Positions 36,382-56,244 of a DNA stretch of 64,000 nt are shown here, in pieces. Below the pieces are notes generated by a model that searched no databases, was not told the DNA's origin, and saw only the letters and a program-made list of their open reading frames with translations. The position numbers were made by a program, and so were the translations under genes. This stretch comes from an uncultured Alphaproteobacteria bacterium (GTDB taxonomy: Bacteria > Pseudomonadota > Alphaproteobacteria > Rhizobiales > Xanthobacteraceae), in assembly GCA_963751535.1 (NCBI GenBank), contig CAVVUW010000001.1, forward strand, positions 167,955 through 231,954, read 5' to 3'. The first letter of the stretch is position 1, and each line of letters begins with the position of its first letter.

Positions 36382-36391
36382 AGGCGATTCC

Positions 36392-37297
36392 TTATTGGCT
36401 CGCGACAAGCTTGTTGCCGGCACGGCTGGATTTGAGGCCCGCAGAAACCGCATCGGCAATTTGCGACGGCGTATCGAGGACAGTAACGCCAGCCGCTTCA
36501 AGCGCCTGGCGTTTGGAAGCGTAGCCGCCGGCATTTCCCGTGACGATTGCGCCGGCATGGCCCATTTTCTTGCCAGCAGGCGCGGCCGCCCCGGCAATGA
36601 AAGCAACGATCGGTTTTGTCATCTTCTTAGCGTAAATGGCCGCATCTTCTTCCATCGCGCCACCGATCTCGCCGACGACGACAACCGCGTCGGTGCCGCT
36701 ATCCCTGTCGAGCGCCTCGAGTGCATCGCGCGTCGTCGTGCCGAGCATCGGGTCGCCGCCAATTCCGATGAACGCTGACTGGCCAAGGCCAGCGCGCGTC
36801 AGGTTGAGACAGATCAGCGTACCGAGGCTGCCGCTGCGCGAGATCACGCCGACGCGCCCAGACCTGAATACGCTCGGCACGAATGCAGGCATGATGCCGA
36901 CGAAGCACTCGCCGGGCGTCACTAGGCCCGCAGTATTAGGGCCAACGATGCGTGTGCCGTGCCTCGCCGCTGCGGCATGCATTGCCATGACATCCTGGGC
37001 TGGAATGTGTTCGGTCAGAACAACCAGCAACTTGATACCCGCCTCACCCGCAGACACCGCAGCATCTTTGGCCATCGCCGGGGGAATGAACATGACCGCA
37101 ACATCGCCCCCGACCTTCGCAACCGCTTCGGCTGTGGTCGCAAATATCGGCACGCCGACATGCGTTTCGCCGGCCCGCTTCGGGTTGACCCCCGCGACCA
37201 CGTTGGTCCCGTAGGCAATCATCTTCTCGCTCCAGAAAGTGCCCTGCTTGCCCGTAATTCCGAGCACTACGACACGATCTTTCTTGCGAACGATCAT
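36392..37297 (-). CDS. succinyl-CoA-synthetase alpha-subunit-like protein (CoA-binding subunit of an ADP-forming acyl-CoA ligase)
   Basis: [10 protein letters not shown] (CoA/Rossmann), SRSGSLG, and the phosphohistidine loop [10 protein letters not shown]. The start overlaps the beta-like gene stop (ATGA). Confidence 0.9.
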
Positions 37298-38421: not shown

Positions 38422-38462
38422 TACATATAATCTCGTGTGGCGCGCAGTCTGCTCGACATCAA

Positions 38463-39887: not shown

Positions 39888-39903
39888 GTCATCAGCTCCG
39901 CAT

Positions 39904-41691: not shown

Positions 41692-41717
41692 GTCCTCTCA
41701 GCCCCGTTCTTGATGGC

Positions 41718-42587
41718 TCAGGTCTTGTCCTGAAAAATCTCGGCTAGCTCGCTGGCGGCGCTTCTCAGCGCCGGCAAATGGCGGCGCGCTGTTTGAACAT
41801 TCATGCGTGCCTCTGGCGCCTGGATAGCAAGGGCCGCGAGCATCTCACCGTTGGTCCCCGTTACCGGAACGGCCATACAGACAACGCCCAGCAGATACTC
41901 TTGCCGGTCGAAAGAGACCTGCTCTTTTCGAATCTGACGAAGCTCGAACTCGAGCCGATCACTGTCGGTGATGGTGTTATCGGTGTATCGCCGCAGTTCC
42001 AGACTCTGCAGGAGCCGCTTGCGGCGCGGCGAAGCAGCCAACGCAAGGAATAACTTGCCGATGGCACTGCAGTGCAGTGGCACGCGTGAGCCACTGGTGT
42101 AGTGCAGGCGGAGGGGCCAATGCTCGGCTTCGACGCGATCGAGATAAACCACCTCGCCGTTCAGGAGCGTACCGATATTGCAGGTCTCGTTGAGCGTATG
42201 GACGAGGCGCTGAAGCACCACGTGCGGCGTGTCATGTCGCATCGAGGACGACAGCGCACCAAAGGCAAGATTCGCGAGTTTTGGACCGACAATCAGCCGG
42301 CGCCGTCCGGGCTCGCGCGCGAGATAGCCTTGCGTCACAAACCAATCCACCAACCGATAAGCCGTCGCCTTCGGCAATTTCACTGAAGCGATAATGTCGA
42401 GCACGTCGACCGGCGTACGTGAGCTTGCGACATGTTCGAGGATAGCGAAGGAACGTGCTGTAGCCCCGAGTTTGTGCTCGCGCGCGGCGCCCGTCTTCGA
42501 AGGACTAAGATGTGGTTTGAGCTCATCCACATTCCGCCCGGAGCCGGTACCAGTGGCCCTTTCGTGAATTCCGAGATTGCTACGCAT
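41718..42587 (-). CDS. IclR-family transcriptional regulator
   Basis: N-terminal wHTH (ARSFAILEHVASSRTPVDVLDIIASVKLPKATAYRLVDWF) plus an IclR effector domain (...GVVCMAVPV...). Confidence 0.9.
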   Translation of the reverse strand: MRSNLGIHERATGTGSGRNVDELKPHLSPSKTGAAREHKLGATARSFAILEHVASSRTPVDVLDIIASVKLPKATAYRLVDWFVTQGYLAREPGRRRLIVGPKLANLAFGALSSSMRHDTPHVVLQRLVHTLNETCNIGTLLNGEVVYLDRVEAEHWPLRLHYTSGSRVPLHCSAIGKLFLALAASPRRKRLLQSLELRRYTDNTITDSDRLEFELRQIRKEQVSFDRQEYLLGVVCMAVPVTGTNGEMLAALAIQAPEARMNVQTARRHLPALRSAASELAEIFQDKT

Positions 42588-42594
42588 GGATCAC

Positions 42595-44112
42595 CTACCT
42601 AGCCCCCGTTTGGACAGTCATCACGCGACTTCTGAATAGGCGCTGCACGAACGGCAGCAACAGGACGACAATGGTCAGTACAACGATGGTTCCAGAGATG
42701 GGTCGCGTGAAGAATACGGTCCAGTCATTCGAAAAACTGATCATCGTGTTCATGAACGCCTCTTCGGCAATCGGACCGAGGATGACGCCAAGTACGAGCG
42801 GCGCGACCGGAAATTTCAGGCGTTCGAAACCATAGCCTAGAATGCCGAACCCGATGATCAGCCAAAGATCCGTAATGTTGTTGCGGATCGACAGCGCACC
42901 GATGAAGCAGAGGATCAACACGTAAGCCGAGACAACCGCCTCGGGAAAATCGAGGATTTTCACGAGGGGCCGGATCGCGAAATAGCCGAGCGCGCACATC
43001 AGCGCCAAGCCGAGGAACAGTGATGCAAACACCGTATAGACAAGGGGCGCCGAGTTCGCGAGAACCTGCGGACCCGGTTGAATTCCGTGCAGCATGAAGG
43101 CACCGAGAATGACTGCGGTTGCACCGCTGCCCGGAATGCCAAGTGCAAGCAGATGAACCATGGCTCCGCCGACTGAAGCTGTCGCTGCGGCCTGCGGCGC
43201 GATGATCCCTTCGGCAATCCCCGTCCCCATCTGATCCTTGCGCTTGCCGAAACGCGCCTCGATTCCGTAGCTCACGAACGATGCAATAGTAGCGCCGGCG
43301 CCCGGCAACAGCCCGATGAGATCGCCGACCACCGAAGAGCGAAAAAACATGCCCTTCACCTCATTAAGCTCCTTGAGCGTCGGCAATTCGGTGCGTGCAT
43401 TCGAAATCTTGTCGAGTGGCTTGGTGGTAAAGCCTAATTCCAGACGCGTCAGAACTTCACCTACGCCATAGGCGCCGACCATGACCACGAGAAACTCGAT
43501 GCCGTCGGCGAGAATGGGTGAACCGAAGGTGAAACGGTAGGCGCCGTAGATCGGATCAGTGCCGACAGTTGAAATCAGAATGCCGACGCTCATGCTAATG
43601 AAGGCGTTGGCGAGTGATCCCTTGCCGATCGCTACCACGCTGAGCAAGCCGAACATGATGATCACAAAATACTCGGGCGAGGAAAAACGCAGAGCGAATT
43701 TGGCAAGCGGTTCTGTAAGCGCCACCATGACGACCGCCGAGAGAAGCCCGCCACCAAGAGCCGCGACCAGGGTCCAGCCCAGCGCCTTGGCTGGCTTGCC
43801 CTTGCGCCCCATGGTGTAACCGTCCCACAGCATGGGAACGTCAATGGGCTCCCCCGGAATTCGGAAGAGGATCGCGGTGAAAGCGCCGCCGTAAGTTCCC
43901 GATACGTACATCGCGGTGAGCAAAACGATCGAGGCGGTGACGTCCATCTTGTAGGTGAAGGGCAAGGCCAGCGCGACGCCCATGACCAACGTCAGCCCCG
44001 GCAACACGCCGATCAGCAGACCAATGACGATGCCGATCACAAGCATCGCCAGATTGAGCGGCGTCAGACAGTGCAGAAACCCCGAGGCCAGCTGAGCGAG
44101 AATGTCAATCAT
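42595..44112 (-). CDS. tctA: TTT large permease TctA (second system)
   Basis: The start MIDILAQLASGFLH is at 44112. TctA repeats are present (GVLPGLTLVMGVALALP, GIPGSGATAVILG). Confidence 0.9.
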   Translation of the reverse strand: MIDILAQLASGFLHCLTPLNLAMLVIGIVIGLLIGVLPGLTLVMGVALALPFTYKMDVTASIVLLTAMYVSGTYGGAFTAILFRIPGEPIDVPMLWDGYTMGRKGKPAKALGWTLVAALGGGLLSAVVMVALTEPLAKFALRFSSPEYFVIIMFGLLSVVAIGKGSLANAFISMSVGILISTVGTDPIYGAYRFTFGSPILADGIEFLVVMVGAYGVGEVLTRLELGFTTKPLDKISNARTELPTLKELNEVKGMFFRSSVVGDLIGLLPGAGATIASFVSYGIEARFGKRKDQMGTGIAEGIIAPQAAATASVGGAMVHLLALGIPGSGATAVILGAFMLHGIQPGPQVLANSAPLVYTVFASLFLGLALMCALGYFAIRPLVKILDFPEAVVSAYVLILCFIGALSIRNNITDLWLIIGFGILGYGFERLKFPVAPLVLGVILGPIAEEAFMNTMISFSNDWTVFFTRPISGTIVVLTIVVLLLPFVQRLFRSRVMTVQTGAR

Positions 44113-44116
44113 GCGC

Positions 44117-44659
44117 TCACCATAGGCTCGGAATCGCAAAGAAGATGTCGGTCGCGCGATCGAATGGCGGAACGCCACGCGGCAGTGAAACATAGGCAAT
44201 ACGCAAAAACAGAATTCCGCAGAAGATCGTCACAGCCGCGCTGGTGCCCCAGATCGCGCGGTGCTCGCGGTACCCGCCGACATACATGAAGGCGGCGAGG
44301 AATAGGAACGTGCCGAGGATGAACCCGAGCACAGGCACGAGGACGGCATAGATCGCCATCAGAACAATGCCGCCGACCAGCAATCGCGGATAAACGGGCT
44401 GTTTTTCCTCGACCTGCGGCTCTCGGTCGAATGCCTCCATAAATCCGGCGGCATCCTGATTGCCGACGATCAGCCGACGTGAGATTTCAAACAGGCAGGA
44501 GCCGCCCATCAGCAGGATTGCAAGGCGTGGCCACACGTCGGGCCCGAGTTGCCCGGGCCGAGGTGCGTAGTCGAATGTGCCTGCATAAAGATAAAGAGCG
44601 GCCGCGATGGCGAGACCCATCGCATAAGGCACAATCGAGCGGAACAGCGCCTTGTCCAT
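44117..44659 (-). CDS. tctB: TTT small subunit TctB (second system)
   Basis: 180-aa four-helix membrane protein between tctC and tctA. Confidence 0.85.
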   Translation of the reverse strand: MDKALFRSIVPYAMGLAIAAALYLYAGTFDYAPRPGQLGPDVWPRLAILLMGGSCLFEISRRLIVGNQDAAGFMEAFDREPQVEEKQPVYPRLLVGGIVLMAIYAVLVPVLGFILGTFLFLAAFMYVGGYREHRAIWGTSAAVTIFCGILFLRIAYVSLPRGVPPFDRATDIFFAIPSLW

Positions 44660-44678
44660 GAGACGTTGTCCGGCGATT

Positions 44679-45633
44679 TCAGTTCGTCGCTACGGTCTTT
44701 TTCATGTCGTCGAGCTGTTCGTTCACGAAGGCCGGAGCCTTCGACGCATCCTCAAAACTGTTCGGATCGGCGTATTGCTCCTCGAGGAACTTCTTGTACT
44801 CGGGTGATGCGTAGACCTTCGCCAGCGCTTCCGAAAGTTTCTTCACGACGTCGGGTGGTGTGCCGGCCCGCACGACGATCGCACGAAATTGCGGCAAGCG
44901 CCACCTTGTAGCCGAGCTCAAATGACGTTGGCACATCTTTGAATGCGTCCAGGCGCTTTTCACCGAACAGCAAAATGGGACGCATCTGTTTGCCGTTGAG
45001 GAACTGCGCAACATCGCCGGCCTGCTCGTAGAGTGCATCGGCGTGACCGCCGAGGATCGAGACATAGCGCTCGCTGGGCTTGGAGAACGGCACTTGGACG
45101 ACCTTGATGCCACCGCGGTCAAGCACGGTGAGCGAAAAATCATCGACACTGCCAAAGCCAAGCGTCGCAACCTTCAGTTTGTTCGGATTGGCCTTGGCTT
45201 CTTTGGCGAAGTCGTCCCAGGTTTTGAAGGGGCTATCCTCCTTCACGAAAATAAACGATGGACCCTTGATCATCACCGCGACTGGCGTGATGTCGTTCAT
45301 CGTCCAACGCGCGCTTTTTCCGGCGAGCAGCGCATGACTATCGGCGATATATATCGCCATGGAGTAGCCGTCGGCAGGCGCGGCAAGGAGTTTCGCCATA
45401 CCGGTCGCACCGGTGCCCCCAGGGACGTTCACAACCGGGATGCCCTGACCGAGCATCGGCTCCATCAGCTTGCTGACGAGGCGCGCGAGTTGATCGGCGC
45501 CACCACCTGGGCCCCACGGAACGATCAGTTCGATAGGTCGCTCGGGATATCCGGCCGCGACCGCCTTGCCCCCGAACAGCGCGGCACCAATGGCCAACAG
45601 CAAAATTGTGACGCTTCGCATGGTCGAACGCAT
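44679..45633 (-). pseudogene. tctC: TTT substrate-binding protein TctC (Bug family, second system) split by a 1-nt frameshift
   Basis: ORF 44752-45633 reads ...VPTSFELGYKVAL and then turns into nonsense. ORF 44679-45170 carries the Bug C-terminus LPQFRAIVVRAGTPPDVVKKLSEAL.... The frames join near 44895-44903 if one base is removed from AAGGTGGCGCTTGCCG. Confidence 0.85.
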
Positions 45634-45757
45634 GGACTCCTCCCTGCCAATCGGCCGCTTGCTTGCATGCCCTGCCTGCGGCCGAGCCCGGCTGGAATGC
45701 TAGTCCGGCTTGTGGTCGCCGGCTGATCGCCAAGGGCGGCGATCCGCCCTGGTGAAG

Positions 45758-45850
45758 TCTCGCCTAGTGAGACCTATGTTCCCAATACGCTAACAGAAGG
45801 TCTCGGTCCGGCAAGGGCGAATCCGAGGCGCCACGTCTCGCCAAGTGAGA
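45758..45850. promoter_or_regulatory. two copies of a 15-bp palindromic motif upstream of the TTT-xsc array (candidate IclR operator)
   Basis: TCTCGC-CTA-GTGAGA at 45758-45772 and TCTCGC-CAA-GTGAGA at 45836-45850. A third copy lies at 47077-47091. Confidence 0.5.
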
Positions 45851-45904
45851 ATTTGCTTCCGGGCGGCTTCGTCTTGGGAGGATTTTTTGGTGACGCGATG
45901 CCGC

Positions 45905-47047
45905 TTAGCGCTGCTCCAGGGGCACGTAGGTACGGGCGTCGGGCCCGTTATAAAGCGTGAGCGGACGCAGAAGGATGTTGTTCTCAAGCTGCTCGAGCAC
46001 CTGCACTACCCAACCGGGCACGCGACCGATCGCGAAGATCGGCACGAACAGATCGCGCTTTATGCCGAGCAGGTGATAGACAACGCCCGAGTAGAAATCG
46101 ACGTTCACGTTCACGCCATGACGCGCATAGGGCGCCATCGCCGCGACCACCGCCTGTAGGATCTCGAACCACTTTGGCTGACCCATTTCCTTTGAAAGGC
46201 GCTCCACGCCTGCGCGCATATGGCGGGCACGCGGATCTTCTGCGCGATAGACACGGTGACCGAAGCCGGTGACCGCTATTCCGGCCTTGCGTTTTTCCTT
46301 TACATAGTCCGCGGCACGCGACGGATCGCCAATCTCCTCGGCCATCTTCATAACGTCCTCCGCGGCGCCGCCATGCGCCGGGCCCGACAACGCCGCAATA
46401 GCCGCAACGATCGCAGCATGGAGATTTGCTTCAGTACCGATCACAACCCGCGCGGCGAACGATGAGGCGTTAGAGCCGTGCTCGGCATGCAGGATCAGAT
46501 CACGGTCGATCAGCTGTGCAGCGTCGACGCTTGGCTTTTTCCCCATCAACATCCAGAGCAGATTGGCGGAATGGTTGAGCGTCTGATCGGCCGGCACAGG
46601 ATCTTGATCGGCGCGGATGCGCGAATGTGCGGCGACGATCATCGGTATCTGCGAAGTCAGCCGAATGGCCTTGCGGAGCGTAGCTTCACGTGAGTTGTCC
46701 GCCGTTTCGGGATCAAACGCAGACAGAGCCGACGCTGCCGTACGTAGGACATCCATGGGATGCGCCGATTTGACGGCGTGAATGATGTCAAGGACGGGGG
46801 CTGGCAGCTTACGCGCCGCCTTTAGATCGGCATCAAAAGCAGCGAGCTGCTGCTTGCTGGGCAATTCGCCGTTAAGCAATAGCCAGGCAGTCTCCTCGAA
46901 GCTCGAATGCTCGGCGAGGTCATGAATTGAATAACCACGGTAGCGCAGTTCGCCCGCCTTGCCGTCGATGAAGGTACAGGGCGAACGATCAAAGTAAACG
47001 CCCTTCAGGCCGCGTTGAATCTTGATCGCTTCGGCGGTTTCGGTCAT
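45905..47047 (-). CDS. citrate synthase family protein (short ~380-aa type; citrate/2-methylcitrate synthase or citryl-CoA-lyase-like)
   Basis: The catalytic blocks HAEHGSNAS, GFGHRVYR and NVDFYSG are present. The start MTETAEAIK is at 47047. Confidence 0.88.
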   Translation of the reverse strand: MTETAEAIKIQRGLKGVYFDRSPCTFIDGKAGELRYRGYSIHDLAEHSSFEETAWLLLNGELPSKQQLAAFDADLKAARKLPAPVLDIIHAVKSAHPMDVLRTAASALSAFDPETADNSREATLRKAIRLTSQIPMIVAAHSRIRADQDPVPADQTLNHSANLLWMLMGKKPSVDAAQLIDRDLILHAEHGSNASSFAARVVIGTEANLHAAIVAAIAALSGPAHGGAAEDVMKMAEEIGDPSRAADYVKEKRKAGIAVTGFGHRVYRAEDPRARHMRAGVERLSKEMGQPKWFEILQAVVAAMAPYARHGVNVNVDFYSGVVYHLLGIKRDLFVPIFAIGRVPGWVVQVLEQLENNILLRPLTLYNGPDARTYVPLEQR

Positions 47048-47076
47048 TGATGCCCTCGCTCGCAACTTTGCGTCTT

Positions 47077-47091
47077 TCTCACGCGGTGAGA
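47077..47091. promoter_or_regulatory. third copy of the TCTCRC-N3-GTGAGA palindrome, in the citrate-synthase-like/pta divergent region
   Basis: TCTCAC-GCG-GTGAGA has perfect 6-bp arms. It lies 30-44 nt from the ATG at 47047 (-) and 4 nt before the pta ATG at 47095. Confidence 0.5.
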
Positions 47092-47094
47092 AGC

Positions 47095-48078
47095 ATGGAC
47101 TTGCTCAAGAAGCTTTTTGATATCGCACGGCAGCGCAATCGCAAAATCGTTTTGCCGGAAGGCGAAGATGAACGGATCATTATCGCTGCCGCACGCCTTG
47201 CGAGCGAGAAGATCGCCTCCCCTATCCTCCTCGGCTCTGCTGAGGAGCTTACGCGACTTGCCGGCCAGCATAGCGTCTCGCTATCCGGGATCGAGATTGC
47301 CGACCCGCGCAGCGACGCGCGACTGCAAAGCTATGGTTCAGCGCTCGCGCGGCTCCGCGAGTCGATGACCCCATCGGTGGCCATGCGTCTCGCGTCTAAA
47401 CCGATCTATTTTGGAGGCATGATGGTTCGGGAAGGCCATGCAGATGCGATGGTCGCGGGCTGCGCCAACCCGACGCGGCGCGTAATCGAGGCGGGGTTGA
47501 TGACCGTCGGATTGGCAGATGGCATCACGTTGCCGTCGAGCTATTTCCTGATGATCGTGCCGGATTTCCTTGGGCAAGGTCCAAGATCGTTCATCTTTGC
47601 CGATTGTGCGGTCAATGCTGATCCGACATCCGCCGAGCTTGCCGATATTGCGATCACTTCGGCACACAGCGCGAAGGCGCTACTCAAAGAGACTCCGCGT
47701 GTGGCGATGCTGTCCTTTTCGACCAAGGGCAGCGCACAGCACGCACGCGTCGATAAGGTGCGGGAGGCCATGAGTCTGGTGCGCCAACGCGAACCGGACC
47801 TTGCCATCGATGGGGAGTTTCAGGCTGACGCGGCCTTGGTGCCGAGCGTCGCGCGGAAGAAAGTAAAGGAGGACAGCGCGGTCGCCGGACAGGCGAATGT
47901 CCTGATTTTTCCTGACCTCGACTCGGGCAATATCGCCTACAAGCTCACGCAGTGGCTCGGCGGCGCCCAGGCAATCGGCCCATTCCTGCAGGGCTTTGCC
48001 AAACCAATCAGCGATTTATCGCGCGGCGCCACAGTTGAAGATATCGTCACAACGTCCGCCGTGGTGGCGGCGAGGTGA
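47095..48078 (+). CDS. pta: phosphate acetyltransferase
   Basis: MDLLKKLFDIARQRNRKIVLPEGEDERII...ADAMVAG...FADCAVN...LIFPDLDSGNIAYK are typical short-form Pta motifs. Confidence 0.9.
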   Translation: MDLLKKLFDIARQRNRKIVLPEGEDERIIIAAARLASEKIASPILLGSAEELTRLAGQHSVSLSGIEIADPRSDARLQSYGSALARLRESMTPSVAMRLASKPIYFGGMMVREGHADAMVAGCANPTRRVIEAGLMTVGLADGITLPSSYFLMIVPDFLGQGPRSFIFADCAVNADPTSAELADIAITSAHSAKALLKETPRVAMLSFSTKGSAQHARVDKVREAMSLVRQREPDLAIDGEFQADAALVPSVARKKVKEDSAVAGQANVLIFPDLDSGNIAYKLTQWLGGAQAIGPFLQGFAKPISDLSRGATVEDIVTTSAVVAAR

Positions 48079-48101: not shown

Positions 48102-49691
48102 TTAGTGCTTCCACTCCGGCGCGGGCACCGGCTTCCACGCGCGCTTGAGCTTGAGGTCGTCGACGATCGCGTTGGCGGCAATGTAGCCCGGAGCCCCGTT
48201 GATACCTCCTCCGTTTCCCGACGACGAACCACAAAGATAGAGCCCTTCCACCGGCGTGCGGGATCCAGGCATCAGAGGATGCGGCCGGTTGATACCGAGC
48301 TGGTTCGGCACATAGGCCCCGACACGCACGGCACCCTGGCGCATGTTCGCATTGAGCTTTTCCACATCGAGCGGCGTGAACAAGTAGGTCCCAATCAGGT
48401 TGTCGCCTTCGAGATTGGACGCGTAGATACGCCAGTAATCGAGGACACGGCGAGTGTATTCGGCGCGATTGCGCTCCCATTCCTGCGGCGAGCCATCCAC
48501 TGAATAGGGAGCAAACGGCCACCAGAACGCAGCGTGCTTGCCACCGGGTGCGTAGCTCGGATCGAACATACTGTTGCACGCACCATTGCCCATCAGCACG
48601 CTGGGAAATTTTTTTGCCGCACAGTCTTCAAAGCAGCTCGCGACGTCGTCAATGTGATCCATGCCGAAAAAGATATTGTAGGCGCGCGAAATATCGGCAT
48701 CGAAAGCAGCTGCGCGGTAGGCCGGAGGGTCTTTGAGCGCGAGGTGCAACGTCACCAGGCTGTGGTTGCCCCAATGCCACGACTTCGCTTTTTCTCGCAC
48801 CGGCTCGGGAAATAATTCTTCGCCGGTCATTCGCACGGTCGTGGGAAAATCGATCGCACTTGCCACGAATTTGCGGCCATCGACCGTGCGACCATCGGCA
48901 AGCTTCACCCCGGTGGCCCGCCCGTTGGTGACTTTGATTTCTCTCACCTCTGCGTCTGTGATGATCTCGCCGCCGCCGGCCTCCACCACCCGCGCCAGCG
49001 CGAGCGCAAGAGAAACTGCGCCGCCAACCGGCAATGTAAAGCTGGCGATATTGGCAAAGATCGCCGGAAAGACGATTCCCGCGCCTGGCACATTTTCGGT
49101 CGTGATGACGTGCATGTAGGACGTGAACAGGGTTCGAATGCGCTCGTCGACAAAATGCTTCCGCACAACACTGAAGAGATCGTGCTGAGCATGCGAAAGC
49201 AGTTCCTTTGCCTTTGGTCCGCTCAGCCGGTCGATCAGTTGCTCGCGCGGCATCGGCGCGTTGTAAAGCAATGATACCAGTAACGGTCGCATTTCCTCGC
49301 AATAGGTGTGCCACAACGCGCGAAATGTCTCGGCGTCCTGCCGGGAAAATCGAGCAAGCGACGCGCAGCTCTTGTCTAGATCCTTGTAGATGACAATGCC
49401 GGTGCCATCACGGAAGACAGCCGCTTGCTGAACGGGCGGCTCGATATAGGAAAAGCCATAGCGATGGAGCTCAAGGTCCCGCAACAAAGGACAAAACCCG
49501 ATGCCCATGTAAAAATTCGCGTGCAGATTGAGCCTATAGCCGGGAAGAATGCGCTCCTCCGTGCTCGAACCCCCACCGATGCGGTTATTGCGCTCAAGTA
49601 CGGCAACTCGCATGCCCGCGCGCGACATATAAGCGGCAAGAGCGAGACCATTGTGGCCGGCTCCGATTACGACGCCGTCGAAATCCGTCAT
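48102..49691 (-). CDS. CrtI/phytoene-desaturase-family NAD(P)/FAD-dependent oxidoreductase
   Basis: N-terminal dinucleotide fold VVIGAGHNGLALAAYMSRAGMRVAVLERNNRIGG. It is 529 aa and starts 10 nt after the comE-like stop. Confidence 0.85.
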   Translation of the reverse strand: MTDFDGVVIGAGHNGLALAAYMSRAGMRVAVLERNNRIGGGSSTEERILPGYRLNLHANFYMGIGFCPLLRDLELHRYGFSYIEPPVQQAAVFRDGTGIVIYKDLDKSCASLARFSRQDAETFRALWHTYCEEMRPLLVSLLYNAPMPREQLIDRLSGPKAKELLSHAQHDLFSVVRKHFVDERIRTLFTSYMHVITTENVPGAGIVFPAIFANIASFTLPVGGAVSLALALARVVEAGGGEIITDAEVREIKVTNGRATGVKLADGRTVDGRKFVASAIDFPTTVRMTGEELFPEPVREKAKSWHWGNHSLVTLHLALKDPPAYRAAAFDADISRAYNIFFGMDHIDDVASCFEDCAAKKFPSVLMGNGACNSMFDPSYAPGGKHAAFWWPFAPYSVDGSPQEWERNRAEYTRRVLDYWRIYASNLEGDNLIGTYLFTPLDVEKLNANMRQGAVRVGAYVPNQLGINRPHPLMPGSRTPVEGLYLCGSSSGNGGGINGAPGYIAANAIVDDLKLKRAWKPVPAPEWKH

Positions 49692-49700
49692 GCTGCCCCA

Positions 49701-50324
49701 CTATGCGCTCGCGGCCTTTACCCCAAGACCGCGCATGAAACGCTCGCGAATTTGAACCGGGTCACGATCCGTCGTTGCTACCGCCGGTTTGTCGTCGATG
49801 CGAACGGCGATCAGGTTCGGCCCCTCACCCTTGAGTGCTGTTGTAACCAAGCGATCGAAGTCCGTCTCGTCAGCAGCCCAGACACTGCTTGCAATGCCGG
49901 CGCCACGCGCAATTGCGACAAGGTCAGCTGCCGGACTTGCGGTCGGCTGCGAGCCGGTGATCTGATAGATGCCGTTGTCCCAAACAACGATCGTGAGATT
50001 TTTCGGCGCGCGTTCGCCCACGGTTGCGAGACAGCCAAGCTGCATCAACAGAGAGCCGTCGCCTTCGAGCGCAAAAACATGTCGACGCGGTTGCGCAATG
50101 GCAACGCCAAACGCAATCGGTATTGCGAGCCCCATGCTGCCGAGCATGTAGAAATTTTGCGGGCGTTGACCACTAGCCCAAAGATCGAAATTGGCATTGC
50201 CGATGCCGCCGATGACGGCTTCCTCGTGCTTGAGCTGACCGACGAGCCGCTTGGTCAATTCGAAGCGGTTCATAACCTTGGCATTGTGCGCCGGTGTCGC
50301 TCCAGACGATTTCGTGTTCGTCAT
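49701..50324 (-). CDS. comE: sulfopyruvate decarboxylase beta-subunit-like ThDP enzyme subunit
   Basis: ThDP/Mg motif EGDGSLLMQLGCLATVGERAPKNLTIVVWDNG. The internal ATG at 50324 gives about 207 aa. A split phosphonopyruvate decarboxylase cannot be excluded. Confidence 0.75.
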   Translation of the reverse strand: MTNTKSSGATPAHNAKVMNRFELTKRLVGQLKHEEAVIGGIGNANFDLWASGQRPQNFYMLGSMGLAIPIAFGVAIAQPRRHVFALEGDGSLLMQLGCLATVGERAPKNLTIVVWDNGIYQITGSQPTASPAADLVAIARGAGIASSVWAADETDFDRLVTTALKGEGPNLIAVRIDDKPAVATTDRDPVQIRERFMRGLGVKAASA

Positions 50325-50328
50325 GGCG

Positions 50329-50865
50329 TCACCCTTCAAACACTTTGCCGCCTGTGAGCAACGGCGACAGGATAAAAGCAACAGGCGCTTGGGTGGCCAC
50401 GGCTTGCTTGATGGACCGATCAATCGTAAAGGCCAGTTCGTCCTGGCGTGTGATCGTGACGTTCTCGACCGCAAGTGAATTGAGCACCGGTCGCATCGTC
50501 TTGTACACCAGCGCCTGCCCGAGATTGAACTCGCCGAGCGTGCCGCGTTCCGAAACAAATATCAGCGCCGGAATCTGACAGGGCACAACAAGCGAGGCGA
50601 GTGCATTTGGAATAGTAGCGAAGCCGCTGGTCTGCATCAGGACGGCACCGCGTAGTCCACCCATCCACGCACCGGTAATGATGCCGATGGCTTCTTCCTC
50701 GCGCGTGGCAGCAAACGTCGTGAAAAACTGATCGGCGTGAAGGGACTTGATCAGCGGCGTGAACACCCGATCAGGCACATAAACGATGAGCTTGACGTTG
50801 TTCGCCTTGAGGGTTGCGAGAATGATCTCGTGCCAGTTGGTTGCCTGTGCTTGATCGTCTGTCAT
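50329..50865 (-). CDS. comD: sulfopyruvate decarboxylase alpha-subunit-like ThDP enzyme subunit (PYR domain)
   Basis: ~178 aa from ATG 50865. The REEEAIGIITGAWMGG block carries the conserved Glu of ThDP PYR domains. It lies 4 nt upstream of the beta-subunit gene. Confidence 0.75.
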   Translation of the reverse strand: MTDDQAQATNWHEIILATLKANNVKLIVYVPDRVFTPLIKSLHADQFFTTFAATREEEAIGIITGAWMGGLRGAVLMQTSGFATIPNALASLVVPCQIPALIFVSERGTLGEFNLGQALVYKTMRPVLNSLAVENVTITRQDELAFTIDRSIKQAVATQAPVAFILSPLLTGGKVFEG

Positions 50866-51023
50866 GGGCGGCAAAATTGCGTACACCTGTACTGAAATTC
50901 GTGTCGTTCTTGCCAAGCTATCGGCGCTTGCTTGAGGCCATTGCTCGCGCAAACGCAAAAGCTTAGCCTAACAGGAATAATGCAACTAATCAGAAAATTT
51001 TGCCGAAACTCAAGGGGAGGACG

Positions 51024-52040
51024 ATGACAAAAACAAATGGACACTCTGCGCCGTCACGACGCAGCATCATTAAAGGCGCTGGTGTAATGGCGGCCGGCGT
51101 CGCCGCTCCGTCAATCCTGAGCATGCGCTCGGCCTATGCCGCCTACCCCGACAGGCCGGTAAAAATAATCGTGGCCAATACGCCGGGCGGACCGTCCGAT
51201 ATTGTCGGGCGCATCACGGCAGGCGCGCTTCAGCAATCAACAGGCAAGACTTTTATCATCGAAAATATCGGGGGCGCGGGTGGAAACATCGGCTTCGGCA
51301 ACGCCGCGCACGCTGCTCCGGATGGCTACACCATCCTTCTTGCGACCAATGCGTGGTCGGTGAATGTCAGCCTCTACAACAAGATCCCCTACGATCCGCT
51401 GAAGGATTTTGTCGGCGTGAGCGAACTTGCAACCTCGCCCAATACGTTCGTCGTCAAGTCGGATTTGCCGGCGAAGACCATGCAGGAATTCGTTGCGCTT
51501 GCGCGAGCCAATCCCGACAAATTCAACTGCGCGACGCCACCGATCGGCACAACTCCCCAGATTCAGCTTGAGGTGCTCAAGATCCGGGAAAAACTGCCCA
51601 AACTTGAGAACGTGGTCTACAAGGGCGGCGGTGACGCCATTCAGGCCCTGCTGAGCGGAACCGCCCAACTGAGTTCCGGTTCGCTCCCGCCAGCGGCACC
51701 GCATATCAAGGCCGGCACAATGCGGTGCCTCGCGGTTACAGGCGAAGAACGCTGGCCGGATCTGCCGGACGTACCGACCATGGTGGAAGCAGGATACAAG
51801 GATTTCGTTTTCGCGACCGACACCAACCTGCTTGCTCCCGCAAAGACGCCCCCTGAAATCGTGAAATGGCTGGAAGCGGAAACGCTAAAGGTGCTCGGTA
51901 CTCCGGAAATGAAGGAGAAGTTATATCAGGCCGGTTTCCAGGTCCGGCCAAAGGGCGCCGATGCCGCCTGGGCCCGCGTGAACAAGGAAATCGATCTGTT
52001 CAGAAGCATCATCGACCAAGCCGGGATTCAGAAGCTGTAG
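51024..52040 (+). CDS. Bug-family (TctC-like) periplasmic substrate-binding protein with a twin-arginine leader
   Basis: MTKTNGHSAPSRRSIIKGAGVMAAGVAAPSILSMRSAYA is followed by YPDRPVKIIVANTPGGPSD, typical of Bug proteins. RBS GGGGAGGA precedes ATG 51024. Confidence 0.88.
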   Translation: MTKTNGHSAPSRRSIIKGAGVMAAGVAAPSILSMRSAYAAYPDRPVKIIVANTPGGPSDIVGRITAGALQQSTGKTFIIENIGGAGGNIGFGNAAHAAPDGYTILLATNAWSVNVSLYNKIPYDPLKDFVGVSELATSPNTFVVKSDLPAKTMQEFVALARANPDKFNCATPPIGTTPQIQLEVLKIREKLPKLENVVYKGGGDAIQALLSGTAQLSSGSLPPAAPHIKAGTMRCLAVTGEERWPDLPDVPTMVEAGYKDFVFATDTNLLAPAKTPPEIVKWLEAETLKVLGTPEMKEKLYQAGFQVRPKGADAAWARVNKEIDLFRSIIDQAGIQKL

Positions 52041-52068
52041 AACAATCGTCATCGGCCAAAACCCTCGC

Positions 52069-53190
52069 ATGCAAATCAAGACAATCGAGCCGATCGCAGT
52101 CAGCCTGCCTATGCTCAAACCCGTTATCATGGCGGGAGAGGAAGTCCGGCGTGCCGACAACGTGCTAGTGCGTATAGAGACCGACGGTGGCGTTATCGGC
52201 TGGGGAGAGGCCGCTTCTGCTCCGGTGATGACCGGCGAGACTCTCGAGAGCATCGTGTCCGCAGTTCGCTATCTGAGCTCCGTGTTGCGTGGGCGTGATC
52301 CGGAAGATATTGGCGGCGCACTCACTGCCATGGATGGCCGCATGTACGGCAATCATGGAGCCAAGGCCGCGATTGAAATTGCGTTGCACGATATTACCGG
52401 CCGGGCGACCGCGCGGCCCGTACATGCATTGCTTGGCGGGAAGAAGCGAAGCCGCATGCCCCTCCTGGGCGTGATAGGAGGCGGCGACCGTGACGGCGAC
52501 CTGCGCGACGCGGAAAAGAAGAAAGCAGCGGGAGTCACCGCTTACAAGATCAAGGTCGGCGTCGACACCGCAGAGAACGACGCGGCGCGCACGCGCGAGA
52601 TTTGCAAGGCTCTTGGCAGCGGCATGCTCATTTCAGCTGACGCGAACCAAGGTTTCAGTACTGGCCAGGCCATCGCCTATGTGCGTGCCGTAAAAGGCTC
52701 GGGACTCGATTTCTTCGAGCAACCTGTAGCGGCTGACGATCTTCATGGAATGGCGGCGGTAGCAGCCGCAACCGATATCGCGATCGGCTCAGATGAAGGT
52801 ATTCACTCGTCCGAAGACATCAGACGTCACCACGAGTGCAAGGCTGCGCGTGGTGTGAGTTTGAAGGCCATAAAATTGGGGGGTCTGAAGGCAGTGACCG
52901 AAGCCGGAAAACTTTGCGATAGTCTTGGCATGAGCGTGAACATTTCTTGCAAGACGGGCGAGTCGAGCGTCGCTTGCGCTGCGGCGTTGCACGTTGCTTC
53001 CGTCATTCCCAACATCGCCTGGGGGTTGACCCTCACCCATACGGGGATCGCAAACGACGTGGTGGCCCAGCCGATCCCGACCGCCAAGGGTCACGTGGAC
53101 AGCCTCGACCGACCTGGCCTTGGTATCGATGTTGACGAAGATCTCGTTCGCCGCCATCGCGTAATGATTGCTGCGCGCGACGTGGCCTAG
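52069..53190 (+). CDS. enolase-superfamily enzyme, muconate-lactonizing-enzyme (MLE) subgroup
   Basis: KxK motif (AYKIKVG), metal-ligand blocks ISADANQGF, FFEQP and IGSDEGI, and the second catalytic Lys region SLKAIKLGG. Confidence 0.88.
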   Translation: MQIKTIEPIAVSLPMLKPVIMAGEEVRRADNVLVRIETDGGVIGWGEAASAPVMTGETLESIVSAVRYLSSVLRGRDPEDIGGALTAMDGRMYGNHGAKAAIEIALHDITGRATARPVHALLGGKKRSRMPLLGVIGGGDRDGDLRDAEKKKAAGVTAYKIKVGVDTAENDAARTREICKALGSGMLISADANQGFSTGQAIAYVRAVKGSGLDFFEQPVAADDLHGMAAVAAATDIAIGSDEGIHSSEDIRRHHECKAARGVSLKAIKLGGLKAVTEAGKLCDSLGMSVNISCKTGESSVACAAALHVASVIPNIAWGLTLTHTGIANDVVAQPIPTAKGHVDSLDRPGLGIDVDEDLVRRHRVMIAARDVA

Positions 53191-53530: not shown

Positions 53531-54171
53531 CTACTTGTTCTCACAGTGGTTGTGCGGTGTGTTTTCGATGCGACCATCGTCGCTCGGACAAGGCAGCGAT
53601 TTCATGCCGTGGATGTTTTTGAATTCTTTGTAGGATGCCAAGCGAACCATGACTTTGGTGATGCGTGCATCAATCATGGCTTCAACGCGCAAGATCTGCT
53701 CAAGTCGTTCCGGTTCGTATGCGCGAGCGACTAGCTCGTTATCGATAGTTGGCCCGGGCAACCGGCGCGGGCGCTCGAAATCGTGTCCATCCTTTTGGTG
53801 CGGGTCGTCTCCTAACCGCATCCTTTCAATCAATGCCTTCGCGAATTCCGACTTTTTGTTCAAGGCTGATGGACTTTGCTGTGCCAAATATCCGATCAGT
53901 TTTTTGGGTCCATGTTTTGCTGCCCTCGTCAATTCCGCCGGAGTCCTTTCCTTGTAGAATGGGAGGATCTGCCCCAACCTGAGCCGTCGCTTCCGCCAGT
54001 GCAGATCGGCCAACTCGTGCACGGCTTCCTCTTCAAGCGGACCTAACGGATTGAGGTCCTGGCGGAAGCCCTCATGGAATGTCGAAATTCCTTCGCGTCT
54101 TCCCACGGCAGCACGACGTCATGGGCGTACAGACCATGCGAAGTTGCGTTGTGTGTTCGCGCTTTTTTCAT
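53531..54171 (-). pseudogene. hypothetical protein gene split by a 1-nt frameshift
   Basis: ATG 54171 (RBS GGAGTGA) gives MKKARTHNATSHGLYAHDVVLPWEDAKEF.... ORF 53531-54106 continues ...TFHEGFRQDLNPLGPLEEEAVHELADLHWRKRRL. The frames join at the A/T run 54085-54087. Confidence 0.6.
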
Positions 54172-54431
54172 CTTGGTCACTCCAAAGCTTGATTGGTCAA
54201 AAGTAAAATCCTGGTGCGATGTGCACCAAGATCCTGTTGCTGCTTTGGTCTGCTGCTTTTAGGTCTTTTGAATTCGTCGACGGCGTAAGCGCGCTACCGA
54301 GCGACCTGCTGCCTAGAAGGCTTCAAACAGAGCAAGCCTGCCGCAACTTTGCTTTTTGGCCCGGCAAGCCCGCTCGCAATTCTGCAAAATCAGTGATTCG
54401 TCGCTCGCTGACAAGTTGCTTTCGGCAATAA

Positions 54432-54695
54432 CTACTTTCCACGATGGCGTTTGCGTAACCGAACGCCCGCCCCGCCCCCATTTTCCTGAATGAATTCGAT
54501 TCCGGCCCGCTCCAGTGCAGCGCGGATGGCCAGAATTGCTTGGCCCGACACCGGCCTTCTCGACTTTTCAAAGTCAACAATCGTTGAAAGTCCGAGCTTC
54601 GCGGCCGAAGCGAGCTCGGGCTGAGTGATCGCCAGCAAGCCCCGAGCGCCACGGCACTGGGCCGCAGTAATTTTATCAACATTTTCTGTTGACAT
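54432..54695 (-). CDS. XRE-family helix-turn-helix transcriptional regulator
   Basis: AAQCRGARGLLAITQPELASAAKLGLSTIVDFEKSRR is a classic HTH_XRE segment. It is divergent from the Gp157 gene. The ORF track's TTG 54707 is an alternative start. Confidence 0.8.
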   Translation of the reverse strand: MSTENVDKITAAQCRGARGLLAITQPELASAAKLGLSTIVDFEKSRRPVSGQAILAIRAALERAGIEFIQENGGGAGVRLRKRHRGK

Positions 54696-54748
54696 CCGAT
54701 TTAACAATCAATATAAAATGTTGACTGCTTACCAAAGGGAGTTGTGCC

Positions 54749-55246
54749 ATGAATCTTTCATTTGCTGCAATAAATTATCGATCAGTCCGCGACCGCATCC
54801 AGGCAGAAGACCCCAGCATCGACGAGCAGACCCTGGCCGACACGGTCGAGGGCCTCACCGATCTCTACGAGATCATCGCGGCCATCGTCCGCGCGGCACT
54901 GGCCGACGAAGCCCTGGCAACCGGGCTCAAGGGCCGCATCGCCGAGATGCAGGACCGGCTTGAGCGCCTGCAGGATTGTGCCGCCAAACGCCGGCAAATC
55001 GCCAAGGATGTGATGGTCGAGCTCGACCTGAAAAAGATTACGGCACCCGATTTCACGGTCTCGATCCGCCCCGGCATGCCGGCTCTCCTCGTGCTCGATG
55101 AAGCCGCCGTGCCGAGCATCTATTGGGAGCCAAGAGATCCGCGCCTGAACCGACAAGAACTGCTGAGTGACCTCAAAGGCGGCACCGAAATTGAGGGTGT
55201 CACCCTTTCCAATCCAGAACCTGTTTTGAGCGTGAGGACAAAGTGA
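54749..55246 (+). CDS. siphovirus Gp157-family protein
   Basis: A coiled-coil N-terminal half is followed by ...KKITAPDFTVSIRPGMPALLVLDEAAVPSIYW, typical of Gp157-like phage proteins. Confidence 0.7.
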   Translation: MNLSFAAINYRSVRDRIQAEDPSIDEQTLADTVEGLTDLYEIIAAIVRAALADEALATGLKGRIAEMQDRLERLQDCAAKRRQIAKDVMVELDLKKITAPDFTVSIRPGMPALLVLDEAAVPSIYWEPRDPRLNRQELLSDLKGGTEIEGVTLSNPEPVLSVRTK

Positions 55247-56244
55247 TGGGCTTCACCGCAAAACAGACGCAGGCGTTGCGGCGTGGCCTCAGCAGTCGAA
55301 GCATTCGGACGCGCGAGGCGAATGGACGCGAACTTTCATACATTGAAGGCTGGTATGCGATCTCGGAAGCCAACCGGATCTTCGGCTTCGATGCCTGGAG
55401 TCGCGAGACTACGGATTCGCGTTGTGTGCTGACGCGCGAAAACCGCGGCGCGTTCCTCGCCGTTTACATCGCCAAAGTGCGCATCACCGTTCAGGCCGAT
55501 GGAACGACGATTGTTCGGGAGGGGCATGGATCGGGTGAAGGTCGTGCCACCTCCCCTGGCGAGGCGCACGACACCGCACTCAAGGCTGCCGAAACCGACG
55601 CCACCAAGCGGGCGCTTTCGACCTTCGGCAGGCCATTCGGACTTGAGCTCTACCGCAAGGATAGAAATGCCGCCTTGGCGAGCCCGCCAACATTCAAGTC
55701 TACTGCGGTTGAAAGTCCGCCGACCCAGCCGCGTTATGGCGCACATCCAGACGATACAACGCCAATCCCGCGGCCGTCCCACTACTACGGTCGGCGGCAC
55801 CATAGCTCCATGGCAGACCTGCTCCGGCGGGATCAAACAAAAGCCAAAGAACGCACTACGGCAACTCCTCCTCCAGCTTCCGCCGCAGCTGACCTCCCTC
55901 CGACCCGGATCGACAAGAGCCAGCTCGCGATTGCCGAACCCAAACGACTGCGCGACAAGGCACACCTGAAATTCGTTGCGTCGCAGCCTTGCGTTATCTG
56001 CGGCCGGCAACCGTCCGATCCGCATCATCTGCGGTTTGCACAACCCAGAGCCATTGGCCTCAAGGTGAGTGATGAATTCACCGTGCCTTTGTGCCGCGGC
56101 CATCATCGGCAATTGCATCAAACCGGGGATGAACGCGCGTGGTGGGAAGGCCAGCGGGTGAATTCCCTGGAGATTGCGAGAGGTCTTTGGGAGAAAACCC
56201 ATCCCGCAATCAATCCGGCTTCACTCGAACAACATCCGTTATGA
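55246..56244 (+). CDS. Rad52/Rad22-type single-strand annealing protein fused to a C-terminal Cys/His (HNH-like) domain
   Basis: The N-terminal part contains LSYIEGWYAISEANRIFGFDAWSRET...ALKAAETDATKRALSTFG. The C-terminal part contains QPCVICGRQPSDPHHLRFAQ...VPLCRGHHRQLH. The ATG overlaps the Gp157 stop (TGATG). Confidence 0.75.
   Translation: MGFTAKQTQALRRGLSSRSIRTREANGRELSYIEGWYAISEANRIFGFDAWSRETTDSRCVLTRENRGAFLAVYIAKVRITVQADGTTIVREGHGSGEGRATSPGEAHDTALKAAETDATKRALSTFGRPFGLELYRKDRNAALASPPTFKSTAVESPPTQPRYGAHPDDTTPIPRPSHYYGRRHHSSMADLLRRDQTKAKERTTATPPPASAAADLPPTRIDKSQLAIAEPKRLRDKAHLKFVASQPCVICGRQPSDPHHLRFAQPRAIGLKVSDEFTVPLCRGHHRQLHQTGDERAWWEGQRVNSLEIARGLWEKTHPAINPASLEQHPL

Follow-up and report, generated by a model that had tools for sequence, protein, structure and literature searches.

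A comDE-like gene pair of Alphaproteobacteria predicted to encode a thiamine-diphosphate enzyme family apart from sulfopyruvate and phosphonopyruvate decarboxylases

The characterised enzymes closest to the gene pair considered here are sulfopyruvate decarboxylase ComDE (EC 4.1.1.79) and the likewise split phosphonopyruvate decarboxylase RhiEF. That two-subunit thiamine decarboxylases are not confined to sulfopyruvate and phosphonopyruvate is illustrated by LumK/LumL, a thiamine-dependent quinoxaline-carboxylate decarboxylase of riboflavin catabolism which is active only as a co-expressed 1:1 complex (PMC12746152). Like the pair described below, LumK and LumL are a heteromeric couple annotated as thiamine pyrophosphate binding proteins, but they occur in the context of a P450, a Rieske dioxygenase and a xanthine oxidase; their kinship to the ComDE/RhiEF lineage we infer only from the citation of RhiEF and ComDE in that paper. 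The present analysis is concerned with a comD-like and a comE-like gene in a 64-kb stretch of contig CAVVUW010000001.1 from an uncultured alphaproteobacterium (in the following called the window), which are accompanied by genes for a CrtI-like flavoprotein, a Bug-family binding protein and an MLE-subgroup enzyme. An original prediction made from the window alone had taken these five genes as a candidate uncharacterised route into sulfopyruvate.

With ComDE the pair has in common the adjacent alpha and beta genes, the subunit sizes of about 180 and 205 amino acids, the thiamine-diphosphate motifs and an identity of about 40%. With RhiEF it shares the fold and the split architecture, and the RhiF-type subunit (PDB 9IZ3) is the best match of the comE-like protein among solved structures, at 84 bits only. 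The comE-like protein gives a clear match to Pfam TPP_enzyme_C and contains a GDG-X26-DN cofactor motif from residue 88. The comD-like protein carries a glutamate-rich TREEEAIG at the site where the cofactor-activating glutamate of the PYR domain is expected, and Pfam TPP_enzyme_N is matched only marginally, with 23.0 bits (E 7e-5) where the gathering score is 26.8. A comD-like gene lies directly upstream of the comE-like gene in every relative. The earlier description of comD and comE as a split pair of the ComDE/phosphonopyruvate decarboxylase type within a compact unit was therefore borne out at the level of architecture, and it is in the family assignment that the pair departs from both known enzymes.

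The comE-like protein belongs to the curated NCBIfam family NF004813 (PRK06163), still named 'hypothetical protein' by NCBI: the match spans model positions 6-200 of 202 and reaches 349.9 bits, the cut-off being 240. The cut-offs of the families with assigned substrates were missed by both subunits: the comE-like protein scored 152.1 bits against 221.5 for TIGR03846 (ComE), the comD-like protein 104.1 bits against 147.95 for TIGR03845 (ComD), and in TIGR03297 (phosphonopyruvate decarboxylase, cut-off 312.5) the beta subunit yielded 138.6 and the alpha subunit 60.0 bits. A neighbour-joining tree unites the window protein with sequences from Bradyrhizobium, Sinorhizobium, Hyphomicrobiales and Rhodospirillales in a separate clade with a long stem. 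Placed outside this clade are the ComE of Leisingera, to which the comE-like protein is 39.6% identical, and a RhiF-like protein with 39.2% identity. The Leisingera protein, annotated as ComE by the Prokaryotic Genome Annotation Pipeline, is encoded in an hpsN/O/P-comDE-slcD cluster for 2,3-dihydroxypropane-1-sulfonate. Because the curated cut-offs are missed and the tree sets it in a clade apart, the pair is regarded as a member of neither the ComDE nor the RhiEF family. As predicted from sequence, it is a heteromeric (alpha/beta) thiamine-diphosphate enzyme of a distinct, strongly conserved family which is a sister group of the sulfopyruvate and phosphonopyruvate decarboxylases without belonging to them, and it would work in the manner of a ComDE/RhiEF-type thiamine enzyme.

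The possibility raised at the outset that the pair might group with phosphonopyruvate decarboxylases beside phosphonate genes did not hold. In addition to the missed TIGR03297 cut-off, phosphoenolpyruvate mutase was found in none of the contexts examined, and no phosphonate gene of any kind was seen in the scanned part of the window (genes from 35 to 53 kb) or in the related loci with listed neighbours, unlike the RhiEF-like locus of Priestia, which does carry a phosphoenolpyruvate mutase/phosphonate gene.

Searches for homologues returned thousands of protein clusters and found the pair in many Bradyrhizobium and Pseudolabrys genomes as well as on soil metagenome contigs. Among Pseudolabrys-like genomes the comE-like protein keeps 75-96% identity, and its Bradyrhizobium counterparts are about 71% identical to it. 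The family itself is narrow: a scan of 1.8 billion representative proteins yielded few clusters at 58-64% identity and then only such with 47% or less, and no more than a handful of 50%-identity clusters stand between the query and the remaining superfamily. The NF004813 scores follow the same pattern, with 337 and 247 bits for two relatives (P0121 and P0123) and 149-188 bits for more distant split decarboxylases; the score drops under the cut-off when identity falls below about 50%. A tblastn search of a plasmid collection gave for the comE-like protein only matches of 35-41%, which represent true ComE, RhiF-like and other split decarboxylases with no orthologous annotated context, and for the MLE-type and CrtI-like proteins only matches of about 31-33%. 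No paper characterising the NF004813 family was found in text searches of the literature, and in this respect the expectation of undescribed biochemistry has been confirmed. The family is conserved like a housekeeping enzyme, lacks an assigned function and can easily be mistaken in annotation for sulfopyruvate or phosphonopyruvate decarboxylase. Knowledge of its substrate would correct such annotations and would stop the family from being counted as a marker of sulfonate cycling in metagenomic surveys. Its interest is moderate as a widespread family of major soil bacteria and low as a sulfonate pathway.

Another split thiamine decarboxylase pair was encountered in Variovorax paradoxus (CP063167.1, locus L175), where the beta subunit is mis-annotated as 'aldehyde dehydrogenase'; a LysR gene precedes the pair, a real aldehyde dehydrogenase gene follows it, and no phosphonate genes are nearby. 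Matches in Ralstonia and Sphingobium bear the same label over the matching stretch. Pairs of this type may represent a further uncharacterised branch of the superfamily.

The gene neighbourhood was compared first of all within the closest relatives, for which a genome scan gave 80 species-level loci titled Pseudolabrys, related Hyphomicrobiales or unclassified Alphaproteobacteria metagenome-assembled genomes, their comE being 75-95% identical to that of the window. Neighbourhoods spanned 8-10 kb, and the counts, for which phylogeny was not corrected, refer to loci with enough flank, hence their varying denominators. The usual order is MLE and Bug genes (-), comD and comE (+), fixJ and fixL (-), and then fixK, the CrtI-like gene, a CBS/BON gene and ccoNOP (all +). 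Upstream of comD an MLE gene is present in 57 of 73 loci and a Bug gene in 53 of 73, and about one fifth of the loci have comDE with neither of these presumed feeder genes nearby. The CrtI-like gene follows comE directly in 5 of 76 loci; within 10 kb it is found in 32 of 59 and missing from the other 27. Where it does not abut comE it lies 3.7-8.5 kb downstream, beyond fixJ-fixL-fixK or other inserts, or is absent altogether, as in L174, where the order is MLE-Bug/comDE/fixJL/fixK/CBS-BON/ccoNOQP. In L021 it has an upstream region of its own, behind a terminator-like hairpin 3' of fixK. The low-oxygen block of fixJ-fixL, fixK, the CBS/BON gene and the cbb3 oxidase genes ccoNOQP in these two loci (Table 1) has no equivalent at the comDE position of the window. 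In six Pseudolabrys-like loci a beta-hydroxyacid dehydrogenase gene stands directly 3' of comE, its best match being tartronate-semialdehyde reductase with 151 bits, below the cut-off.

The module adjoins pta/xsc in the window and in three relatives (L004, L006 and L020), and within 10 kb xsc occurs in 3 and pta in 5 of 59 Pseudolabrys-like loci. Since most relatives have fixJ-fixL-fixK in between and few have xsc, the tight comE-CrtI junction and the adjacency to xsc are traits of the small sub-lineage to which the window belongs and in which fixLJK is absent. That comDE stands next to sulfonate genes seems to be an accident which befell this lineage recently. On these counts the CrtI-like flavoprotein is not a fixed partner of comDE.

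The wider family was collected by a search with a 64%-identical representative and a scan of metagenome contigs, and the Bradyrhizobium loci were named by exact-sequence look-up. In Bradyrhizobium a D-2-hydroxyacid dehydrogenase gene faces comD in all 27 loci with enough flank, and in 16 of these 27 a Bug gene, whose product is 35-38% identical to the Bug protein of the window, lies between the two. Nearby, none of 27 loci has an MLE gene and none of 21 a CrtI-like gene, and xsc is absent within 10 kb from all 21. The closest solved relative of the dehydrogenase is McyI (223 bits), a microcystin tailoring enzyme which converts 3-methylmalate to 3-methyloxaloacetate (PDB 9JNQ/8WPH; PMC11977255). 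This likeness suggests that a step from a substituted malate to a substituted oxaloacetate may feed the decarboxylase in Bradyrhizobium; such a dehydrogenase is absent from the window, where the MLE-type enzyme takes its place. Downstream of the Bradyrhizobium pair are genes for tartronate-semialdehyde reductase, hydroxypyruvate isomerase and glyoxylate carboligase, or else for oxalyl-CoA decarboxylase, all above the cut-offs, and the same oxalate/glyoxylate region is known from B. diazoefficiens (PMC5996035).

Yet other partners occur in further lineages. On a metagenome contig (L173) a single co-directional operon is formed by Ldh_2, a DUF1932/beta-hydroxyacid dehydrogenase-like gene, tctB, tctA, comD and comE; in Sinorhizobium mexicanum the order is Ldh_2-TctB-TctA-comD-comE, and the DUF1932 gene is found downstream on the opposite strand. 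The flanks of both contain more hydroxyacid dehydrogenases, a TcuA-like flavoprotein and aldolases, and in L173 also genes for electron transfer flavoprotein. In three loci (L089, L090 and L172; Table 1) genes for TcuA/TcuB (tricarballylate dehydrogenase), matched far above the cut-offs, diverge from comDE. In several lineages the pair has genes for HIBADH-type beta-hydroxyacid dehydrogenases next to it, and in two contexts one for an aldehyde dehydrogenase. The slot beside comD usually holds an enzyme able to yield a 2-oxo acid from a carboxylate, the only partner that does not readily fit being TcuAB, which makes cis-aconitate.

Between genera the decarboxylase is about 71% identical and the Bug proteins 35-38%, and because the decarboxylase is conserved while the adjacent Bug protein and enzymes are swapped, it appears as a fixed core with variable inputs. 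A fixed decarboxylation step is suggested by this conserved core, by the feeder slot and by the recurrent semialdehyde-type reductases and dehydrogenases. On these grounds we consider the case evenly poised that the family is conserved, depends on thiamine and decarboxylates a 2-oxo acid bearing two acidic groups, which interchangeable enzymes supply, and that the module is not dedicated to sulfonates. The decarboxylase would remove C1 of a 2-oxo acid bearing a second anionic group and release an acid semialdehyde, the second group being a carboxylate in place of the sulfonate or phosphonate in the substrates of its nearest relatives. The neighbouring enzymes would be lineage-specific feeders, exchangeable for one another, which make one and the same 2-oxo acid from different imported carboxylates. 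In the window, the Bug protein, putatively exported by the twin-arginine translocation pathway, would capture the acid for a tripartite tricarboxylate transporter (TTT), and the MLE-type enzyme would convert it to the 2-oxo acid either by dehydration or by isomerisation and subsequent oxidation; in the latter route the oxidation may have been taken over by the CrtI-like flavoprotein. If the arrangement is as proposed, the combination of a fixed decarboxylase with swapped feeders and binding proteins is a clear example from nature of how pathways evolve in modules.

The MLE-type enzyme is the proposed feeder in the lineage of the window. Its K160-x-K162, D191, E217, D242 and K266 align with those of the L-Ala-D/L-Glu epimerase of Bacillus subtilis (1jpm) and of 2p88, so that all marks of the MLE subgroup are present, namely the KxK on strand 2, the Asp/Glu/Asp metal ligands and the lysine on strand 6; the motifs named in the original prediction were correctly recognised. 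The best match in the Protein Data Bank is 2p88 with 167 bits, related structures ranging from about 150 to 167 bits; 2p88 we take to be an N-succinyl-Arg/Lys racemase, its label there reading only MR/MLE family protein. In spite of the shared KxK, Asp/Glu/Asp and second lysine, the protein differs from muconate cycloisomerases in scoring below the cut-off of the muconate/chloromuconate cycloisomerase model TIGR02534 (193.8 bits against 334.95), and no closer characterised member of the subgroup was found. Nor does it bear the marks of a dipeptide (L-Ala-D/L-Glu) epimerase. In these enzymes a D-x-D motif after strand 8 binds the ammonium group of the substrate, and the window protein has LTLTHT where 1jpm has FDFDAP, so that the motif is absent; it also reaches only 113.6 bits against 500 in NF041118.

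As to the identity of the substrate, the leading candidate, offered tentatively, is a 3-substituted oxaloacetate, above all oxaloglycolate, which would be decarboxylated to tartronate semialdehyde and then reduced to glycerate. Oxaloglycolate is put first because in Bradyrhizobium the partner is McyI-like and genes for tartronate-semialdehyde reductase are among the neighbours. Formulated for the family as a whole, and with as little confidence, NF004813 could be an unrecognised decarboxylase of 3-substituted oxaloacetates (oxaloglycolate to tartronate semialdehyde, or else oxaloacetate to malonate semialdehyde) at the fixed core of a modular pathway. This pathway would lead from Bug/TTT uptake over a feeder (McyI-like in Bradyrhizobium, MLE-type in Pseudolabrys, Ldh_2 elsewhere) and the decarboxylase to a semialdehyde reductase. 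The oxaloglycolate route would be a redox-neutral path from tartrate-type acids, and if it exists, plant hydroxy-dicarboxylic acids of the tartrate and malate type would enter the glycerate pathway and central metabolism by it in dominant soil Alphaproteobacteria. The classical Pseudomonas literature describes tartrate dehydrogenase and the reductive decarboxylation of oxaloglycolate to glycerate (EC 1.1.1.93, EC 1.1.1.92). The proposed sequence from a hydroxy-dicarboxylate over oxaloglycolate and a C3 semialdehyde to glycerate resembles this precedent and fits the tartronate-semialdehyde reductase neighbours; those enzymes are, however, not thiamine-dependent split decarboxylases, and the link to them is drawn by inference only.

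Several points weigh against this proposal. The substrate is deduced from gene neighbours only, and as the partners vary (MLE, 2-hydroxyacid dehydrogenase, Ldh_2, TcuAB), a single common substrate is an assumption. The Pseudolabrys-like loci in which comDE stands without a feeder could point to an endogenous substrate, and the glyoxylate/oxalate genes may adjoin the pair by plain synteny within Bradyrhizobium. We know of no established reaction of the MLE subgroup that gives oxaloglycolate. The nearest characterised relatives act on sulfopyruvate, the module adjoins xsc in the window and three relatives, and the top match of the Ldh_2 partner is L-sulfolactate dehydrogenase, although below threshold (214 bits against a cut-off of 500). 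MLE and CrtI-like genes occur together more often than by chance (28/18/3/9, odds ratio 4.7, p = 0.049, uncorrected for shared ancestry), by which the flavoprotein may be a real accessory. The pairing of TcuAB, a tricarballylate enzyme, with a 2-oxo-acid decarboxylase is not accounted for.

An alternative of a different kind is that the five genes are not one unit, comDE, Bug-MLE and the CrtI-like gene being independent and joined by synteny only, with the tight packing in the window as the by-product of a deletion. It gains from the separate upstream region of the CrtI-like gene behind the hairpin in L021, from the 27 loci lacking this gene, from the fifth of the loci in which comDE occurs without MLE or Bug and from the entirely different partners in other genera. 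What makes it unlikely is first the 158-bp intergenic region between comD (-) and the divergent Bug and MLE genes (+). It harbours a 34-nt element consisting of the palindrome TTAGGCTAA followed by TTGC-N10-GCAA, and in an alignment of 56 intergenic regions most positions of this element are conserved to at least 75-90%. The element is probably an operator or promoter, and its conservation in 56 loci argues for co-regulation of the two divergent units. Second, the slot at comD has repeatedly been filled by a plausible maker of a 2-oxo acid in independent lineages, often together with Bug (in Bradyrhizobium the slot is filled in 27 of 27 loci), and in L173 the genes for dehydrogenase, transporter and decarboxylase form one co-directional operon. 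Regulation of the divergent units by FixK/FNR was also considered and rejected, TTGA-N6-TCAA being absent from the whole window and from the conserved Bug-comD element.

The route of the original prediction leads to sulfopyruvate. In it the Bug protein would import cysteate or sulfolactate, the MLE-type enzyme would racemise it, the CrtI-like flavoprotein would oxidise it to 3-sulfopyruvate, comDE would convert this to sulfoacetaldehyde, and Xsc and Pta would yield acetyl-CoA and sulfite. The nearest characterised families, ComDE and phosphonopyruvate decarboxylase, speak for it, as do the pta/xsc genes abutting the module in the window and three relatives and the arrangement of comD, comE and the CrtI-like gene in one tight operon. 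TTT systems import sulfolactate in Roseovarius (SlcHFG), the Ldh_2 gene before comDE in Sinorhizobium-type loci is of the ComC family and has L-sulfolactate dehydrogenase as its top sub-threshold match, and a malate-type dehydrogenase could plausibly take sulfolactate. Other findings speak against it. Besides the missed ComD and ComE cut-offs (104 against 148 and 152 against 221.5 bits) and a clade apart from the ComE of the 2,3-dihydroxypropane-1-sulfonate cluster, the relatives are not linked to sulfonate genes: the co-conservation with xsc that had been set beforehand as a test is lacking at the neighbourhood level in Pseudolabrys-like and Bradyrhizobium loci alike. The CrtI adjacency is limited to the closest relatives and coincides with the absence of fixLJK, so that the route calls for a partner which most relatives do not have in this place, and the comE proteins beside xsc, with 83-88% identity, are no more diverged than the others.

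The CrtI-like protein is moreover closer to carotenoid ketolases and desaturases than to amino-acid oxidases. It matches Pfam Amino_oxidase (60.5 bits against a cut-off of 19.8), DAO and NAD_binding_8, fails the cut-offs of CrtO (NF045689, 177.4 bits against 1000) and crtI_fam (TIGR02734, 104.7 against 238.1), and finds its best sequence match in the Protein Data Bank in the phytoene desaturase 4dgk with 47 bits only. A disguised TcuA homologue was rejected, since the BLASTP similarity is confined to the dinucleotide fold.

Nor does the xsc gene of the window call for comDE. A complete sulfoacetate cluster (Table 1) adjoins the module upstream on the chromosome; SauS reaches 788 bits there (cut-off 600) and Xsc 958 bits (cut-off 676). 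The composition of the cluster is unusual, with TctABC in place of an importer of the major facilitator superfamily, a SauCD-type, ADP-forming ligase and a type-II citrate synthase; SauCD-type ligase together with SauS has a precedent in Bilophila (PMC10413351). Xsc and Pta are accounted for without comDE because the SauCD-like ligase and SauS adjoin them; by these predicted activities Xsc has its own supply of sulfoacetaldehyde, and an input from the comDE-like pair is needless as an explanation. The statement that no known sulfopyruvate feeder is present holds for the scanned genes, those from 35 to 53 kb in the window. All in all the route into sulfopyruvate is not supported and we regard it as improbable; sulfopyruvate as the substrate of the pair is chemically possible, a minority reading of similarly low probability. 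A frameshift divides the gene for TctC in the xsc cluster, 246 N-terminal and 73 C-terminal amino acids lying in different frames; in L004, L006 and L020, and in L003 as far as the locus extends, it is continuous, and the split reflects a pseudogene or else an error of sequencing.

Least probable is a non-oxidative 2-oxoglutarate decarboxylase, which would form succinate semialdehyde in a low-oxygen bypass of 2-oxoglutarate dehydrogenase and might correspond to an activity in Bradyrhizobium japonicum for which, to our knowledge, no gene has been named. The core-like, high conservation in Bradyrhizobium and Pseudolabrys and the adjoining fixLJ-fixK-ccoNOQP genes of Pseudolabrys-like genomes would suit such an enzyme, several partners could yield 2-oxoglutarate (a SerA/McyI-type dehydrogenase from D-2-hydroxyglutarate, TcuAB via aconitate, an L-2-hydroxyglutarate-oxidase-like DAO partner with 196-207 bits, below the cut-off), and the aldehyde dehydrogenase and HIBADH-type enzymes encoded nearby could have succinate semialdehyde as their substrate. 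The activity itself is on record for B. japonicum as cited in PMC10418658. This reading is nevertheless very unlikely, as 2-oxoglutarate exceeds the C3 substrates of the nearest relatives by two carbons, a FixK box is missing upstream, synteny alone may have placed the fix genes there, and no evident part is left for the Bug and MLE partners.

Returning to the preferred scheme of a conserved decarboxylase with exchangeable feeders, the five genes of the window were all found as intact reading frames where they had been predicted, and their positions were refined (Table 1). Their tight packing on the minus strand was read from the sequence: the comD stop TGA (50331-50329) is followed by 4 nt (cgcc) and the comE start ATG at 50324, and the comE stop TAG (49703-49701) by 9 nt and the CrtI-like start ATG at 49691. 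For Bug the start is placed at the ATG at 51024 behind GGGGAGG, the mechanical open reading frame beginning at TTG 51000. The Bug protein matches PF03401 (TctC) with 207.9 bits against a gathering score of 27, and its best matches in the Protein Data Bank are Bug27 and BugD. Its leader, MTKTNGHSAPSRRSIIKGAGVMAAGVAAPSILSMRSAYA/AYP (also given as ...SRRSIIKGAGVMAAGVAAPSILSMRSAYA), shows an SRRSIIKG motif together with a hydrophobic stretch and a site of the AYA cleavage type. Of the predicted twin-arginine leader the motif itself is visible by eye, but the Pfam profile TAT_signal (PF10518) stays just below its threshold (19.4 bits against 22.7); this is the single reservation to be made on the features seen in the original prediction, which were otherwise all confirmed.

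Table 1. Position of genes, clusters and other features in the window and in related loci
Feature	Locus	Position	Strand	Description
CrtI-like FAD oxidoreductase (COG1233-type)	window	48102-49691	-	529 aa; Pfam Amino_oxidase
comE-like beta (pyrophosphate-binding, PP-domain) subunit	window	49701-50324	-	207 aa; NF004813
comD-like alpha (pyrimidine-binding, PYR-domain) subunit	window	50329-50865	-	178 aa; TIGR03845 sub-threshold
Conserved intergenic element	window	50938-50971		Bug/comD divergent region; alignment of 56 loci
Bug/TctC-family periplasmic carboxylate-binding protein	window	51024-52040	+	PF03401; twin-arginine-type leader
MLE-subgroup enolase-superfamily enzyme	window	52069-53190	+	373 aa; MR_MLE_N + MR_MLE_C
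Sulfoacetate cluster	window	35326-48078		YeiH-like exporter, SucD/SucC-like two-subunit ligase, SauS, Xsc, IclR regulator, TctA/B/C, type-II citrate synthase, Pta
Split TctC gene of xsc cluster	window	44679-45633	-	frameshift
Prophage/mobile remnant	window	53531-56244		
Rad52/DUF968 recombinase gene	window	55243-56244		within the remnant
Second TctA gene and nearby 982-aa fusion	window	7547-9064 and 11880-14828		
TcuA/TcuB	L089	5711-8249		Hyphomicrobiales genome
TcuA/TcuB	L090	5832-8328		metagenome contig
TcuA/TcuB	L172	4729-7225		Rhodospirillales metagenome-assembled genome; layout same as L090
Low-oxygen block	L021	10679-16213		
Low-oxygen block	L174	8616-16612		
Split thiamine decarboxylase pair	L175	5468-8089		Variovorax paradoxus CP063167.1

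Two further regions of the window may be mentioned. A second TctA gene occurs near a gene for a 982-aa protein in which a GlcD-like, FAD-linked oxidase is fused to a 4Fe-4S dicluster domain, the two being possibly another system for the oxidation of an imported hydroxy acid. Directly past the MLE gene lies a prophage or mobile remnant with the recombinase gene and small open reading frames that match no family. Synteny breaks at this remnant, the region beyond the MLE gene differing among relatives.

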